This document shows, piece after piece, positions 50,596 to 57,852 of a stretch of 60,014 bases of DNA (position 1 is the stretch's first letter; every line of letters starts with the position of its first letter). The DNA is from a virus (taxonomy: Duplodnaviria > Caudoviricetes). Under the pieces are notes generated by a model. It saw only the letters and a list, made by a program, of their open reading frames with translations, was not told where the DNA came from and did no database searches. The translations under genes were made by a program, and so were the position numbers. The DNA lies in the IMG/VR virus record IMGVR_UViG_3300008261_000019, positions 1 through 60,014 of that record; one strand, 5' to 3'.

Positions 50596-50653
50596 AGGGT
50601 AAGAAGCATATACGATACTACTTCGGTAGTTACTCGACAAGTATATGTACCTT
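50596..50653 (+). ncRNA. Unidentified structured RNA motif, copy 1
   Basis: GGT-AAGAA-GCATATAC-GAT-ACTAC-TTCG-GTAGT-TACTCGACAA-GTATATGT-ACC; covaries with the copy at 51842. Confidence 0.6.
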
Positions 50654-51841: not shown

Positions 51842-51899
51842 GGTGAGAAGCTTACCTAATACTCATCTCCACATGAGTCACTTGGCAAGGGTAAGTACC
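51842..51899 (+). ncRNA. Unidentified structured RNA motif, copy 2
   Basis: GGT-GAGAA-GCTTACCT-AAT-ACTCAT-CTCCAC-ATGAGT-CACTTGGCAA-GGGTAAGT-ACC. Confidence 0.6.
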
Positions 51900-51934: not shown

Positions 51935-52255
51935 ATGTTTAATGTTAAGTTGAATCGCAGAGGTAAGATTGTTCGACTGTTGTTTGTTGTCGCATTGTTC
52001 ACAATGATTATTACTGGTATTGCGGATAGCTTCTTCAAGGATGCATTTAAGGTAGTGGATTACGAAGAGGTAGTTGTCTCTGATGGAGATACCATCTGGA
52101 TGTTGTGCAAGAAGTTTAATGGACGAGTAATTGCATCATCGACCGGGGATGTTGGTGAATGTGTTCATCATGTAAGTAAGATGAATCCTGAGCAATCTGA
52201 TACGTTACGCTCTGGTGATGTTATTAAGATGCCTGTATTGGCTGTTAATGAGTAG
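51935..52255 (+). CDS. TM plus LysM protein, YneA-like cell division inhibitor
   Basis: N-terminal TM; VVVSDGDTIWMLC...MNP...TLRSGDVIKMP LysM; 106 aa, the same architecture as Bacillus YneA. Confidence 0.7.
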   Translation: MFNVKLNRRGKIVRLLFVVALFTMIITGIADSFFKDAFKVVDYEEVVVSDGDTIWMLCKKFNGRVIASSTGDVGECVHHVSKMNPEQSDTLRSGDVIKMPVLAVNE

Positions 52256-52280: not shown

Positions 52281-52316
52281 GGAGAGGGCCTCATAGATGG
52301 GGTCTTCTCCTTTTTA
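52281..52316 (+). terminator. Intrinsic terminator
   Basis: GGAGAGGGCCTCA-taga-TGGGGTCTTCTCC-TTTTT. Confidence 0.7.
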
Positions 52317-52318
52317 TT

Positions 52319-52377
52319 TTCTTCATAATGCAGCCATTGACGGTCACAAGCCCGTATGAGAAATGCAGAGTGGGAAG
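52319..52377 (+). ncRNA. Twister ribozyme (type P1)
   Basis: cttca-TAA-TGCA-GC-cattga-CGG-TC-ACAAGC-CCG-tatgagaaa-TGCA-GAG-tggg matches twister architecture; predicted cleavage between U52326 and A52327. Confidence 0.85.
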
Positions 52378-52623
52378 TCATATCACGGAAAGGAGTTGAT
52401 GAGGTGCTAAACAACTTGCAGTGCTCCACCATTGCAAGCCTAGCAGTACGGGCGCTACAACGTCGTCAGTCAGAATCGTTTACCAGGAATACCATGCCAC
52501 TTTTACTGAATTTCTTGGGCATGGAGATGTTCTTAAATTCTTGGTTCCATGGGGACGCCTGTGAATTGCAGTGGACGTGCAATCTAACAAGACGTTACTA
52601 CTACACGAAAGGAGGTGATTTTT

Positions 52624-53157
52624 ATGTTTGATTGGCTAGCAGAATACGACAAAGGTATCCCCATTGAAGAAAATGAAACATCTAACATCGATGAGTTCCG
52701 TATCGCCTACGAATACCAAGACCTCAAAGAAACACTTGGTATCGCTCATCACAACTTCAATCAATCAGAAGAGGCATTTTTATTAGCACTCAAATCTGAT
52801 GACCTCAGTACCTTTGCCTATCACTACAGACGGTTTTTAGGTTTTAACCGCCAAGCTAGCATCTTTGTCGATGCTTCTGTAGCCATGATGAGACGTAATG
52901 CTGAGTTGGGTTATCTTGGGATTGATGAAGACAAAGCATTTAGACGCTATTGGAGATATGCTGGATTTAAGTTTCATAACCAGCAAATCACTGATACGTT
53001 TAAGAACTTGCAAGTTACGCCAGTATCTAAACCAGAAGAGAGGAGGGACCTGAACCTAAATGTTCCTGATTTCAAAGAATTCCCGATTGAAATTAGTGCA
53101 GCGCACCGTCTCGACCCATATGGGTTCAATACTGACGGATTTGGGCATTTCTATTGA
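52624..53157 (+). CDS. Hypothetical protein
   Basis: Perfect SD GAAAGGAGGTGAT followed by ATG at 52624; the ORF track starts at 52615. Confidence 0.7.
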   Translation: MFDWLAEYDKGIPIEENETSNIDEFRIAYEYQDLKETLGIAHHNFNQSEEAFLLALKSDDLSTFAYHYRRFLGFNRQASIFVDASVAMMRRNAELGYLGIDEDKAFRRYWRYAGFKFHNQQITDTFKNLQVTPVSKPEERRDLNLNVPDFKEFPIEISAAHRLDPYGFNTDGFGHFY

Positions 53158-53428
53158 TGATTTTATTGTTAATAGAATTGAAATTGTAGAAAGTCGAATT
53201 CATGGGTATACAGGTAATCCATCCGAGAGAAGTAGCATTCATATTTATTTATCTCTACCTGTATTGTTCTCAAATTCTTTAATGGCTTTCAAGCCCGTTG
53301 CTCGTCGCTTTATTTGCTTCGAATTGGTCAAAGAACTATACCACTACTGGTCTAGTATCAATCGCATTGAATATAACCCAGCTTGGGCTGAATCTTATGC
53401 CGAACAGTGGGTCAAGGAAAATCTGTAA
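53060..53428 (+). CDS. Hypothetical protein
   Basis: Overlaps the previous ORF; true start is probably the ATG near 53120. Confidence 0.5.
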   Translation: MFLISKNSRLKLVQRTVSTHMGSILTDLGISIDDFIVNRIEIVESRIHGYTGNPSERSSIHIYLSLPVLFSNSLMAFKPVARRFICFELVKELYHYWSSINRIEYNPAWAESYAEQWVKENL

Positions 53429-53432
53429 TACC

Positions 53433-53460
53433 CGTCCTGAGCATGACGTTAAAAGGCTTC
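53433..53460 (+). ncRNA. Compact H-type pseudoknot motif, copy 1
   Basis: CGTC-CTGAGCAT-GACG-TTAAAAG-GCTT; loop GAGC pairs with GCTT. Confidence 0.5.
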
Positions 53461-53494
53461 CTCTTCATGAGGACTAAAAAAGGGAGGCAAAACA

Positions 53495-53971
53495 ATGCCA
53501 AAATCACCACATGCAAACTGGTCTGTATGGTCATTACTTCACCTTGAAGACAATGATGTCGTATATGGACCAAAAGTCTCAATCGATAAAATTGAGAAAA
53601 TCGTCAACACCCTGCAACCACCCATCAAGGTGATTGTAAGAGTTGATAATCGCGAGACCATCATCAAAGAAATGGCGTTCAAAGCCAAGGAGTCAGGTTG
53701 CGAAATCCATCTCGAAGACAATCGTAATCCCCGACATCCCATTCCCCACATGAACGACGACTGGTCAATGGTCCGTTATCGTGGTGGAGTAATCATTAAC
53801 GGTAAGCCCGAGACCGTAACACAGGCAATTAATGATGAGATTTATGGCTATAAACAAGACCTCATTGTTAGGTACGATTTAAAGCGTTACATCATTGATG
53901 AGGCATTGTATTCCGCCGAGATTCAGCGCAAGTACGATGTCTTATTACTTGAGCCAGTAGCCCGTCACTAA
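53495..53971 (+). CDS. Hypothetical protein
   Basis: SD AGGGAGG; 158 aa. Confidence 0.75.
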   Translation: MPKSPHANWSVWSLLHLEDNDVVYGPKVSIDKIEKIVNTLQPPIKVIVRVDNRETIIKEMAFKAKESGCEIHLEDNRNPRHPIPHMNDDWSMVRYRGGVIINGKPETVTQAINDEIYGYKQDLIVRYDLKRYIIDEALYSAEIQRKYDVLLLEPVARH

Positions 53972-53978
53972 ATCCCCC

Positions 53979-54015
53979 AGCACCCTGACAGATGGTGCTC
54001 TATAAATAGTCTGTC
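53979..54015 (+). ncRNA. Compact H-type pseudoknot motif, copy 2
   Basis: AGCACC-CTGACAGAT-GGTGCT-CTATAAATAG-TCTGTC; loop GACAGA pairs with TCTGTC. Confidence 0.55.
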
Positions 54016-54040
54016 CACTTTACTAAAAGGAGATAGTGAT

Positions 54041-54553
54041 ATGCAAAAAATCAAAGTTAACTTGCCTGTACAGAGGTCGTACTCAAACATTGTTGGCTTC
54101 CAGGTCAAGGGAGTTCCTTACTCGAATCAGCAATGGATTCGTCTCGAGTCTGATAACCCGGAGGGGCTTATTCCGGAAATGAACGTATCGCTTAATGTAG
54201 GCCCTGGCATGTCGCTTTACATTGGTCGTAATGACCAGAATGTATACCGCTTTGGTCTTTGGTACGAAGATGAAACCCTTCGCCCAGGGCACGGGGGCTT
54301 TTGGTCATCAAACTGCGAGTTTGTTCGGGAACAGACAGGAATTGACCTAGTTCCAATCAGTATTGCAAAACCAGGCGACACGGGAATTGCGGCTTACATG
54401 CGAGCAGACATTCTTGCGCTGATATCAATTAAATTTGGCTACAGACTAGTATGGGGTCGCTTTTATTATGATGACCCTCACTGGCATGCAGTTCCGATTG
54501 GTCAACCAAATCCTGAAGAACTTCCACCTCAGGAAAAGTGGTGGAAAGATTAA
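54041..54553 (+). CDS. Hypothetical protein
   Basis: SD AAGGAG; 170 aa. Confidence 0.75.
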   Translation: MQKIKVNLPVQRSYSNIVGFQVKGVPYSNQQWIRLESDNPEGLIPEMNVSLNVGPGMSLYIGRNDQNVYRFGLWYEDETLRPGHGGFWSSNCEFVREQTGIDLVPISIAKPGDTGIAAYMRADILALISIKFGYRLVWGRFYYDDPHWHAVPIGQPNPEELPPQEKWWKD

Positions 54554-54613
54554 TCCCGCCTGACGAGTCCTAAAGGACGAAACCTGTAGCCTTCGGGCTA
54601 TGGGTCGTGGGAT
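54553..54613 (+). ncRNA. Hammerhead ribozyme (type I)
   Basis: Stem I ATCCCGC/GTGGGAT; core CTGACGA; stem II GTCC-taaa-GGAC; GAAA; stem III ACCTGTAGCC-ttcg-GGCTATGGGT; GTC triplet with cleavage after C54606. Confidence 0.93.
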
Positions 54614-54925
54614 ATGATTTACCCACAATTTATACAGAAAGGAAGTGATGGCCATCTGTATCGTAGTGCTCCACCACTACCGCTACAGAAAATCCCCTGC
54701 AACACGACCAATCATCAAGACGCTACACACACCCTCTACGTACTCCACGTACACCCTGTCGTCCCGTCGTCAAAGTCAGTTGTCTGTCGTTAACTTTCGC
54801 CCATTTAGTGAGTTCATGGGCGAAGAGAGTCACATAAACTCTTGTTTCCATGGCTAGCCGTGTGAGGGTTTATAAACGCTCAAGCTAATCAGCCGTAAGG
54901 CAAAACTAAAAGGAGGTATCCCACG

Positions 54926-55582
54926 ATGGATACAAACAAAGACAAAATGATGGCATTCTTGTCATCAATGACCGAAGAGCAAGCTTCAACTTTCATGGCA
55001 ATGCTTTCGCAACAAGAAGCTCCTGTCACAACTAAACCAATTGAAGTAACATGCGCACCATCAGTTGCACCGTTCTTTGCAGTAATTATTAATGAACCGT
55101 GGTTTCATGCAACAATCGATATGTATCCGGTAGCAGGCGGTTGGTCGGAATGGAAGTTTGCTGACCTTGCAAAAGCAAAAATGGCTGAATTTAAGATTGC
55201 TGAAGATTCCGATACTGCTGGCGATGCATGGGTTTTTCTTAATCGTATGCTTGGTCTTACTGGTAGCAAGGAGGACCGTTGTTTTATCGCTGAAGCTGTA
55301 TGCGAAATGTTGGGTATGGAGTACAGACATTCTTACCGCGTAGCAGACAAAGTATCTGATGTCATTGCCTGGGCAGTTGATAAAACTGGTATTAGCATTC
55401 AATGGGTTGGCAATAAAGTCGTTCTTGTTGGTGAATGGACGCAAGACCGCGCACCTGATGCTGGCGGCTTAGTAGGCAAGCCTCTTCGCTGGGCAACTGA
55501 TGTAGTCAGCAATGGCAAGCAAAATATCAGCAACTTGAAGCAAGCGTATAATCAAGTGAAAGACAACAAAGCCACTGAGTAA
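54926..55582 (+). CDS. Hypothetical protein
   Basis: SD AAGGAGGT; 218 aa. Confidence 0.75.
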   Translation: MDTNKDKMMAFLSSMTEEQASTFMAMLSQQEAPVTTKPIEVTCAPSVAPFFAVIINEPWFHATIDMYPVAGGWSEWKFADLAKAKMAEFKIAEDSDTAGDAWVFLNRMLGLTGSKEDRCFIAEAVCEMLGMEYRHSYRVADKVSDVIAWAVDKTGISIQWVGNKVVLVGEWTQDRAPDAGGLVGKPLRWATDVVSNGKQNISNLKQAYNQVKDNKATE

Positions 55583-56109
55583 TCGGTGGTTTTCCTGTCT
55601 ATCAGGAGGAATGAGGGTTTATCCCTTTTCCTTGAGTACATCTGATTAGGTGTATTCAAGGAAGACGGATATGCCAGTTGCTATCTGGTCTTCAAAAATT
55701 TAATCCGAAAGGAGGTGATTTATTATTTCACCAGCACTATCCCGCACCAAGGGGAGTGGAGAGTCAAGCGCAAGTCGAGATGTAGCCTACCAGTATTCGT
55801 AGTTTTACTTTCATCTAACAAACAAAGGCACCCGACGTTTTTTGCGCTACTTATCCCTGCGGAGGTGAGCTAGTTGCACGTGGAAGTCGTTCAGTCAAGC
55901 AAGTCCTGTCGTCCGTCGGTATCGTTCAGTCGCTCAAGTCAAGTTGTCAGTCGGTGTAATCAAGCAGATGCTTTTCTTATCTATGGGGAGGTCTGGGGTC
56001 TAACATAGATGGCTCCATGGGATTGTCTTCTCATACGCAGTAAACGCTCAAGCTAATTGCCTGTAGCTCAAATTCAAAACCACCAAAAATAAAGGGAGAT
56101 GTATTTATC

Positions 56110-57042
56110 ATGATGAAAATTCAAAACGTTCAAGTTATCAGCACAAACGAGGTGACTCGTGCAATTAAGGTTGCTCTGGAGAATGGCAAATGCTTTACGG
56201 CTGGCTTCTCTGCAACAACACCAGATTTTATGATTCAACGCACCAACGGCGTAGTCGCATCCACAACGAAGTCTGCAGTTATTGCATCTTTCAAAGGCCA
56301 TATGGATATCACTGATATCAAGACACTTGCAGAACACATCAATGCATTGCGTCCGGTGGTATTCGGCAAGTCAACGCAAAACGTAAACATCCTGCCAAAA
56401 GTTAAAAAGGAATACAAAGCAACTTGTGCATGCTGCGGTGTTGGTTTGACTGATAAAGTCATTGATTTCTGCAATCGCAAGTTGTTCGGTGAAATGGTTT
56501 GTTTTGATTGCCAAAAAGGTCCGAAAGGTCCTAAGAAGGAGGGCGCGAGCGAAGCGAGCGCCCCTACTCCTTCCTCCATTTCAGCTCCTCAAGTATCTGT
56601 TCAGGACTCTGCTCCTGTAGCAGATGCTCTTGAGGATATGCGTTTAGAAATGGAGGAGATTCGTAAACAAATGGAATCAGACCCTGATTGGATTGATTCC
56701 ATTTCTGTTACAACTACTATTCCTAGGGCGAGCGAAGCGAGCGTAAGAACCAAATGCACAAAATGCGATGGTTCTGGTAAACTCCATTTTTATGTGCATG
56801 TACAAAATGGAGTATGCTTCCGATGCAAAGGCAGAGGGTATTTTAGCGCTAAGCCAAAAAACACTGCTCCTTCAAGCCTGAAGGAGTCAGAGGATGTTGT
56901 CGTTACTGATAACGAAAAAACACCTATCTCAGAGCAGTCATCCGCTGAGGTAGGTGTGGTTATATCGAACGATGCCGTGGCCTGGACGAAGTCGCTTGAA
57001 GAAAGTTTACTGGAGAGCGACTTGGTGGCAGACCGGAATTAA
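56110..57042 (+). CDS. Zinc-finger protein with DnaJ-type CxxCxGxG repeats
   Basis: CACC...CFDC and CTKCDGSG...CFRCKGRG; SD AGGGAG. Confidence 0.75.
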   Translation: MMKIQNVQVISTNEVTRAIKVALENGKCFTAGFSATTPDFMIQRTNGVVASTTKSAVIASFKGHMDITDIKTLAEHINALRPVVFGKSTQNVNILPKVKKEYKATCACCGVGLTDKVIDFCNRKLFGEMVCFDCQKGPKGPKKEGASEASAPTPSSISAPQVSVQDSAPVADALEDMRLEMEEIRKQMESDPDWIDSISVTTTIPRASEASVRTKCTKCDGSGKLHFYVHVQNGVCFRCKGRGYFSAKPKNTAPSSLKESEDVVVTDNEKTPISEQSSAEVGVVISNDAVAWTKSLEESLLESDLVADRN

Positions 57043-57083: not shown

Positions 57084-57132
57084 TACCTGGTATGCTTAAG
57101 CATACCAGGTATTTATATATAAGTCAAATTAA
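57084..57132 (+). promoter_or_regulatory. Palindromic leader element, copy 1
   Basis: TACCTGGTATGCTT/AAGCATACCAGGTA, a 9-nt spacer, then AAGTCAAATTAA. Confidence 0.55.
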
Positions 57133-57802: not shown

Positions 57803-57852
57803 TACCTGGTACACTGTAAGTGTACCAGGTATTCTGATAAAAGTCAAATTAA
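57803..57852 (+). promoter_or_regulatory. Palindromic leader element, copy 2
   Basis: TACCTGGTACACT-gta-AGTGTACCAGGTA, a 9-nt spacer, then AAGTCAAATTAA. Confidence 0.55.

Follow-up and report, generated by a model that had tools for sequence, protein, structure and literature searches.

Three paralogous non-coding elements, possibly 5' leaders of processed early messages, in the operon of an uncultured freshwater phage

What could three related stretches of non-coding DNA be doing in front of three unrelated genes of a single phage operon, two of them directly behind putative ribozymes? The question is raised by IMG/VR record IMGVR_UViG_3300008261_000019, a sequence of 60,014 bp from an uncultured freshwater phage with an estimated completeness of 27% (CheckV), which was analysed over its whole length and is called the window hereafter. 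Three elements of its plus strand, named A, B and C, precede the genes 52624-53157, 54926-55582 and 56110-57042, which are mutually unrelated (no pair at E ≤0.05). A first-pass annotation had described the elements as three diverged copies, each of about 250-350 nt, of one GTC-rich non-coding element, and had proposed a family of processed phage non-coding RNAs (ncRNAs), perhaps acting as protein sponges, decoys or polymerase templates. The reading that we tentatively prefer is another one: A, B and C may be paralogous non-coding 5' leaders of three processed early messages, with an orphan Shine-Dalgarno (SD) word at the head and a shared regulatory block at the end.

The shared block and the hairpins

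Local alignments of the elements were judged against 1000 dinucleotide-preserving shuffles. The 3'-terminal ~95 nt are alike in all pairs, the score being reached by none of the shuffles for A-B and by one of them for B-C and for A-C. The 5' halves show no significant likeness (74, 431 and 350 of the 1000 shuffles reach the score for A-B, B-C and A-C, respectively), and the similarity of A and C beyond the 3' block is confined to the SD word. Because only this block is significant in every pair, the three-way homology amounts to ~95 nt and not to 250-350 nt. A covariance model of the block, built on sequence only, has exactly three matches in the window (Table 1), and the next best score is 6 bits. 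The repeat reported in the first-pass annotation is therefore confirmed in part: the 3' block recurs in all three elements and the 5' halves do not.

The block has a constant internal organization. TCCATGG is in its place in the three elements and is separated from RRACGYKCAAKCTAAY by 18-20 nt in 3 of 3 copies; this two-motif pattern has three matches in the window and none in 100 shuffles. TCCATGG by itself is not enriched window-wide (8 occurrences versus 4.8 expected, three of them in the elements), and the 23-nt family that ends in it has three copies. The sequence said to be shared by B and C is an exact 17-mer, with 2 matches in the window at up to 3 mismatches; at least two such matches appear in 3 of 100 shuffles. 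The A copy departs from this 17-mer at 6 of its 17 positions. The blocks end ~10 nt (A and B) or ~25 nt (C) before the SD sequence of the next gene, and 35-55 nt separate them from the start codons of the three unrelated genes. A Spo0A box or a restriction site was also considered for TGTCG/CCATGG and examined through the motif count.

The complete identity of the 17-mer in B and C amid diverged surroundings, its fixed spacing to TCCATGG and its position ahead of three start codons would also suit a block that acts at the DNA level, either as a promoter or operator that serves an RNA polymerase encoded or modified by the phage, or as a recombination cassette resembling the promoter/stem-loop (PeSL) cassettes. 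The phage does encode a YonO-type polymerase, whose gene, into which the operon runs, matches the RNA-dependent RNA polymerase (RdRP) family PF05183 of Pfam (E 1.1e-20). This family includes YonO, the DNA-dependent RNA polymerase of phage SPbeta, and an excerpt of the same source gives the YonO promoter as unknown (PMC5467207). Repeated regulatory cassettes ahead of variable genes are also described for T4-type phages (excerpts of PMC2839356 and PMC4122927). However, the blocks are devoid of sigma-70-like sites on the plus strand, and a terminator part of the PeSL type was not found in the consensus scan. The block occurs only three times in 60 kb, never ahead of the minus-strand structural genes, the expected targets of a YonO-type enzyme, and its A copy departs from the 17-mer at 6 positions. 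In addition, the predicted hairpins use G-U pairs that exist only in plus-strand RNA, and an A>G change present in one strain breaks the CCATGG palindrome but would leave the RNA pair as G-U. Taking both sides together, an action at the DNA level is considered unlikely.

Besides the block, the elements have several parts in common, although not all of those initially listed. The SD-like GAAAGGA(G/A)(G/T)TGA and CGCTAC are present in each of them, as described. A hairpin of different sequence in each element was also announced, and it was found in A and B but not in C. The first hairpin of A and B (H1) carries a CUCCAC loop and a common identical 12-mer. The arms of the second one (H2) differ in sequence between A and B and the pairing is retained; perfect stems as good as these are found in 0.019 (A, 7 bp) and 0.0005 (B, 9 bp) of 2000 shuffles. 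The equivalent place in C holds no comparable hairpin (4 bp; 0.21 of the shuffles are as good). In A and B, both H1 and H2 have good support, and a small hairpin using CAUGG is predicted as well, with a probability of ~0.5. Alternative pairings of AUGGG and CCAUGG segments are possible; a ribosome-mediated transcription attenuator was considered and rejected, since no terminator-like site lies behind these pairings.

The CUCCAC hexaloop recurs on three hairpins with unrelated stems, namely the H1 of A, the H1 of B and a hairpin at 51861-51878. CTCCAC occurs 18 times in the window versus 11.5 expected, a number reached in 3 of 100 shuffles. Its complement GUGGAG is found inside element C (55756-55761) and inside the gene 53495-53971 (53784-53789).

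Table 1. Positions in the window of the three elements, their parts and the structures upstream of them
Feature	Position	Strand	Details
Terminator-like hairpin with T run	52281..52310	+	13 pairs, 7 of them G-C, then TTTTTATTTT; ends 11 nt before the twister
Probable twister-P1 ribozyme, without P3, upstream of A	52322..52376	+	RF03160, full model 1-68, 46 bits, E 9.2e-8
A, SD-like word GAAAGGAGTTGAT	52388..52400	+	12 nt after the twister; GTG 8 nt downstream opens a 75-codon frame, 52404-52631
A, hairpin H1	52415..52438	+	9-bp stem, CUCCAC hexaloop; -16.0 kcal/mol (50-nt context)
A, hairpin H2	52492..52524	+	CCAUGCC paired with GGCAUGG, 7-bp perfect stem
A, conserved 3' block	52507..52599	+	TCCATGG 52546-52552, then after 20 nt GGACGTGCAATCTAAC; 81.3 bits
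Probable type I hammerhead ribozyme, upstream of B	54554..54612	+	RF00163, full model, 30.3 bits, E 3.2e-4; CUGACGAG, GAAAC and GUC present
Predicted 5'-terminal hairpin GUGGG/CCCAC of the RNA 3' of hammerhead cleavage	54607..54626	+	Minimum-free-energy structure of 54606-54957
B, SD-like word GAAAGGAAGTGAT	54637..54649	+	Nearest ATG (54648) only 2 nt from the core
B, hairpin H1	54663..54680	+	6-bp stem plus outer extension, CUCCAC hexaloop; 12-mer AGTGCTCCACCA identical to A
B, GTC-rich tract	54758..54788	+	7 GTC in 31 nt
B, hairpin H2	54796..54824	+	UUCGCCCAU paired with AUGGGCGAA, 9-bp perfect stem
B, conserved 3' block	54808..54900	+	TCCATGG 54847-54853, then after 19 nt TAAACGCTCAAGCTAAT 54873-54889; 76.7 bits
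Long hairpin upstream of C	55620..55671	+	24-nt arms, 83% complementary, 4-nt loop
C, SD-like word GAAAGGAGGTGAT	55707..55719	+	No ATG, GTG or TTG 4-13 nt downstream
C, GTC-rich tract	55887..55955	+	10 GTC in 55886-55952; 35-nt tandem duplication, 2.0 copies, 79% matches
C, conserved 3' block	55969..56068	+	TCCATGG 56014-56020, then after 20 nt TAAACGCTCAAGCTAAT 56041-56057; 69.6 bits

Coding capacity and the GTC tracts

The elements A and B contain open frames of 75 and 69 codons, each running from the SD word through an RRQS...NSxFHG motif, and might therefore be taken to encode paralogous small proteins of 75 and 69 amino acids with a common C-terminus, C being a decayed copy. The two products share 14 of 31 residues in a BLASTP alignment (E 9e-6 for the single comparison) and, in A, the GTG lies 8 nt from the SD word and the frame ends in a ATGTTTGA overlap with the next gene. 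However, most of the evidence is opposed to translation. Codon usage was scored as log-odds trained on the phage's own genes (leave-one-gene-out, 408 in-frame windows of 70 codons): the gene windows gave 0.54 ± 0.17, with a minimum of 0.011, and the frames of A and B gave -0.29 and -0.32, below 408 of 408. These two scores are within the range of a 1.8-kb non-coding region, and no frame stands out. Over 33 aligned codons, the differences between A and B fall 16, 13 and 17 times on codon positions 1, 2 and 3, without any excess at the third one. The shared 12-mer is framed from codon position 2 in A and from position 3 in B, and the nucleotide similarity of both elements extends beyond the stop codon of B, whose ATG is only 2 nt away from the SD core (Table 1). 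The longest stop-free runs of the three gaps are no longer than those of shuffled sequences (p 0.07, 0.17 and 0.33), and the shared frame of C is interrupted by three stops and lacks a start. TAG read-through in C was dropped as an explanation because TAG terminates the gene 51935-52255 and a suppressor tRNA was not seen; the tRNA search of the window found none.

Database searches gave the same picture. The A and B products belong to no Pfam or PHROGs family, and none of 5.8 billion protein clusters was scored for them in a word-seeded search. The only hit of a full HMMER search over 1.84 billion representatives was an artefact, a tandem-repeat protein with eight matches confined to one short stretch, and tblastn of the A frame gave chance hits only (E 3 or worse). 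With respect to strain variation, 13 of the 17 changes in the flanking genes are synonymous, excluding five of a divergent patch at 55466-55474 (run X8), while the single changes in the A frame and in the C frame are both non-synonymous and one run has an extra T in a C frame, numbers that are far too small alone. An intact frame everywhere, codon-level conservation and gene-like usage, which would characterize a small-protein family, were not found, and small proteins from A and B are regarded as very unlikely. The non-coding character proposed in the first-pass annotation stands, since codon-level conservation of the RRQS...NSxFHG frame is lacking, codon usage is non-coding-like and the H2 pairing is kept. 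The elements look non-coding, at most with incidental upstream frames.

The GTC-rich tract, which was also attributed to the three elements, is a property of B and C; A contains only 3 GTC. Within the 60 kb, a 60-nt segment reaches 7 or more GTC only twice, in the tracts of B and C (mean per segment, 0.6). Their mutual likeness is marginal once composition is kept (33 of 1000 shuffles), and the C tract is a 35-nt duplication of recent origin. The triplets are irregularly spaced, and their predicted unpaired probabilities are close to those of the whole leader or below them (0.49 versus 0.44 in A, 0.35 versus 0.46 in B, and 0.50 versus 0.49 in C). One strain carries a C>A variant at 55910 that removes one GTC of C. 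A long-range partner for the tracts was sought and rejected, since the best duplex, ~3.7 standard deviations from the mean of ~555 windows, was judged to be due to chance.

ToxI-type antitoxins are arrays of ~34-36-nt tandem repeats situated directly upstream of an endoribonuclease toxin gene. A ToxI-like type III antitoxin RNA was rejected as well: the tandem repeat is present in C alone (2.0 copies of 35 nt), and the protein encoded downstream of C has no toxin-family match in Pfam or PHROGs.

The exceptional GTC density of B and C, the 5' ends plausibly set by ribozymes and the non-coding character of the elements could indicate that they are released as discrete, stable, trans-acting ncRNAs, in which the GUC repeats soak up, for instance, an RNA-binding protein or a nuclease. 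Such molecules would recall the sponge RNAs CsrB and RsmZ, where a short triplet is likewise repeated many times, as it is within 30-70 nt in B and C. In contrast to those sponges, the GUC triplets are neither shown to sit in hairpin loops nor predicted to be exposed, A is nearly without a tract, and the elements lack a promoter and a terminator of their own. The consensus scan found no 3'-end signal, and the irregular spacing, the loss of a triplet in one strain and the recent origin of the C tract also speak against this reading. We know of no protein that binds GUC repeats, nor of any partner for a GUC-tract sponge. Discrete trans-acting RNAs are thus highly doubtful, and the sponge or decoy role put forward in the first-pass annotation found no support; nor did the alternative suggestion of a template for the RdRP-like enzyme, which is unlikely. 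We have no defensible explanation for the GUC tract, whose predicted exposure is ordinary, whose spacing is irregular and which is nearly absent from A.

Putative processing elements, orphan SD words and a proposed mechanism

The structures that precede the elements agree with the first description: A is located behind a probable twister, B behind a probable hammerhead (both matches to Rfam models) and C behind an inverted-repeat hairpin with 24-nt arms. The segment upstream of A is a probable ribozyme, although its score is below the curated Rfam gathering cut-off (46 versus 67.2 bits) and the optional P3 hairpin is absent. In its alignment the consensus GGUCCCAAG is replaced by GGUCACAAG and the consensus GAGGG by GAGUG, two changes that may form a compensating pair in a tertiary contact. 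The hammerhead match also lies under its cut-off (30.3 versus 34 bits), with the core and the three stems all included in the alignment; at gathering thresholds, Rfam gave no match in the window. The long hairpin upstream of C is a candidate site for double-strand-specific processing, presumably of the RNase III type. Hammerhead ribozymes cut after GUC and twister ribozymes near the 5' end of the motif, and the ends left by both carry a 5'-hydroxyl. The terminator-like hairpin is so near the twister (positions 52281-52326) that terminated transcripts and transcripts read through and then cleaved would end within ~10-15 nt of each other.

The consensus scan detected plus-strand terminator-like sites at 52281-52310 and 57084-57111, none between 52311 and 57083, and no plus-strand promoter-like site inside the elements, which are therefore contiguous with their downstream genes. 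Lacking such boundaries and leading straight to the next gene's ribosome site, the elements are more simply read as leaders, and a family of processed ncRNAs is not shown. The interpretation offered in the first-pass annotation is partly supported: the elements are non-coding, as it held, and the roles it proposed for them do not hold.

Each element begins with an SD-like word at a short distance behind the putative processing element, namely 12 nt (twister), ~30 nt (hammerhead GUC) and 36 nt (long hairpin). The words resemble GAAAGGAGKTGAT; located at 52388, 54637 and 55707, they precede the gene starts by 224-390 nt and are not the initiation sites of the downstream genes. Among the listed plus-strand genes with a start 4-13 nt from an SD sequence, eleven have the ATG at 7-11 nt and the twelfth (53060) at 13 nt; the words of the elements are followed by a GTG at 8 nt in A, by an ATG at 2 nt in B and by no start codon in C. 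Because this spacing is unlike that of the listed genes, the words are orphan or nearly orphan, putative docking words. Their complementarity to the anti-SD was judged against the canonical sequence, which may differ from that of the host.

Known cases of mRNA protection suggest what such words could do. RNase J1 of Bacillus degrades RNA from 5'-monophosphate or 5'-hydroxyl ends and is blocked by a ribosome on a strong SD sequence (excerpt of PMC5737220). Transcripts can gain stability from a strong SD sequence that lacks a start codon, and SP82 phage mRNA needs its ribosome-binding site to be stable (both in excerpts of PMC7509114). In the leader reading, one long plus-strand transcript would be cut by the twister (A), by the hammerhead (B) and probably by a host double-strand RNase at the long hairpin (C). 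Cleavage after the hammerhead GUC would produce a downstream RNA starting at 54607 and able to fold the 5'-terminal GUGGG/CCCAC hairpin, while after the twister cut the downstream RNA would retain the folded ribozyme. The strong orphan SD word would then dock a 30S subunit or a ribosome, which could keep 5'-to-3' decay away from the newly made end, be it a 5'-hydroxyl or a 5'-monophosphate. A variable middle region would follow, consisting of the CUCCAC-loop hairpin (A and B), the GUC tract (B and C) and H2 (A and B), and finally the conserved block (TCCAUGG, 18-20 nt, RRACGYKCAAKCUAAY), ending 10-25 nt before the true ribosome site. This block might be a common cis-regulatory site that places the three unrelated genes under one control. 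The proposal builds on the sequences of the parts, their order and spacing, the non-coding character and the hairpins of A and B; from these we infer cleavage in vivo, docking, stabilisation and a regulator.

Several observations weigh against this proposal. The folding energies of the elements are ordinary (z -0.02, -0.89 and -1.34), the three-way consensus fold of the 3' parts is weak (12 pairs, 1 compensatory), and the folds of the leaders reveal no common way for the block to mask the downstream ribosome site. TCCATGG is not invariant, because the A>G change mentioned above falls within its C copy. The host 5'-to-3' exonuclease is an assumption. Element A may be translated, because its GTG is well spaced and the 75-codon frame overlaps the start of the next gene. 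Finally, searches with near-exact motifs found the element in no other phage (IMG/VR, JGI metagenome contigs, GTDB genomes and GenBank phages), so that its function stays inferred.

A bolder extension, which we consider rather improbable, is that A, B and C constitute a small post-transcriptional regulon of a new kind. The cut 5' ends would be guarded by the SD words, and the block, together with a GUC platform in B and C, would be recognized by a single RNA-binding factor, of the phage or of the host, which sets the timing of translation or decay for the three early genes. Such a regulon would, if true, mean that twister and hammerhead ribozymes of phages serve the concrete purpose of producing defined and protected 5' ends.

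Relatives, genomic context and significance

The pattern and model searches require near-exact motifs and would miss diverged relatives. Within this limit, a blastn comparison of 52300-56100 with GenBank phages found nothing, the exact 17-mer was found at 5 IMG/VR loci, all unrelated by inspection, and a degenerate two-motif pattern at 2 IMG/VR loci, both corresponding to one membrane-protein gene of a giant-virus bin. A stricter two-motif pattern, which recovers 3 of 3 copies in the window, had 0 matches in JGI metagenome contigs and 0 in GTDB genome contigs, and a pattern combining the SD word and CUCCAC had 0 in IMG/VR. The 218-aa gene and a polymerase fragment yielded no match in IMG/VR. 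The 170-aa gene has 5 relatives with 36-53% identity; two IMG/VR loci of this family are not syntenic and show no Rfam match at E ≤0.1, and the closest pair of its proteins, used as query, found none in the metagenome and genome scans. The nearest retrievable phages share only 51-60% identity in the portal protein, and among their records the hammerhead was found in 0 of 4, the twister in 0 of 4 and the block in 0 of 5; one of them has a distant polymerase match, and the zinc-finger gene is in 0 of 2 searched.

Near-identical copies of the phage are present in freshwater metagenome runs from several studies. None of the runs listed as carrying it is an RNA run, and the one RNA run of the source study holds next to none of the sequence words. 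Contigs from 4 DNA runs represent near-identical strains, B being only partly covered. The changes in the elements (1 single-nucleotide polymorphism, SNP, in A; 0 in B; 2 SNPs and 1 indel in C) are too few to be informative; beside C there are an upstream SNP at 55599 and a downstream indel at 56085. The X8 contig matches 55436-55506, inside the gene 54926-55582, at ~85% (11 differences in 71 nt) with unlike sequence on both sides, indicating that a mosaic relative exists in freshwater samples.

The similarity of the elements could also be a functionless remnant, left over from ancient duplications or recombination joints whose copies now drift apart. The element is lineage-specific, being absent from the 5 related phage records searched, only ~95 nt remain alike, C is rearranged and bears the fresh 35-nt duplication, and strains vary inside TCCATGG, in the length of a T run within C and in that of an A run between C and the next gene. 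Nevertheless, simple drift would hardly produce so uneven a conservation, with a 17/17 identity beside unalignable sequence, nor would it hold the motif spacing in 3 of 3 copies or retain the H2 pairing with changed arms in A and B. Phage genomes, moreover, rarely keep a useless spacer of ~1 kb. A remnant of this sort is decidedly unlikely.

As regards genomic context, the minus strand carries the structural genes up to ~48.9 kb, including those of the major head protein, portal and large terminase (PHROGs), and the plus-strand operon starts at ~50.7 kb and is composed of small genes of unknown function, running into the polymerase gene. For the genes listed from 50707 and 57147, SD spacing favours ATG 50725 and ATG 57153 as the likelier starts. 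The open reading frames 52624-53157 and 53060-53428 share 98 nt in different frames, which may reflect a later start of the second gene or a frameshift. Two copies of an unassigned structured motif pointed out in the first-pass annotation are located at 50596-50653 and 51842-51899; unlike the twister, the hammerhead and the long hairpin, they have the next gene only 35-50 nt away, without a long leader. A 36-nt repeat at 57097-57132 and 57817-57852 (83% identical) lies behind a gene in each case, both copies with minus-strand promoter-like sites bearing a TG extension, and the first copy overlaps a perfect palindrome with 14-bp arms and a T run.

The leaders proposed here can be compared with several known systems. 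The STAB-SD (SD-type) or polypurine 5' mRNA stabilisers of Bacillus include the cryIIIA leader (Agaisse & Lereclus 1996) and SP82 early RNA (Hue, Cohen & Bechhofer 1995), as cited in excerpts of PMC3997798 and PMC7509114. As in those stabilisers, a strong SD-like purine word belongs to an untranslated leader, remote from the ribosome site that serves the gene and near a putative processed 5' end, with structure ahead of it (the retained twister fold in A, the predicted 5' hairpin in B). Unlike them, the 5' ends would come in A and B from self-cleaving ribozymes, and behind the word, whose stabilising effect would be the same, the leader extends for another 200-350 nt and includes the shared block. 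Like other hammerhead and twister ribozymes of phage operons, the probable ones ahead of A and B occupy a boundary between genes of an early operon, immediately behind a stop codon or terminator and before the next ribosome site; here, 250-320 nt of repeated leader separate the ribozyme from the next start codon. PeSL cassettes of T4-type phages, as outlined in the excerpts cited above, are similarly repeated non-coding cassettes before unrelated small early genes, but neither a sigma-70-like promoter nor a terminator part was found in the elements by the consensus scan. Each piece has known counterparts: ribozymes are found at gene boundaries in phages, and both 5' stabilisers of the SD type and repeated regulatory cassettes have been described. 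Full-text term searches, which were not exhaustive, found no description of their combination, in which one leader design recurs behind three different structures (twister, hammerhead, long hairpin) and unrelated genes share a ~95-nt block ahead of them.

What twister and hammerhead ribozymes do in phages is still an open question. The operon suggests a testable job for them: the conversion of a long early transcript into separately stabilised, co-regulated messages. If the leader reading does not hold, A, B and C are a lineage-specific repeat of one uncultured freshwater phage, of limited reach. If it does, ribozyme processing would be linked to the known protection of mRNA by ribosome roadblocks.

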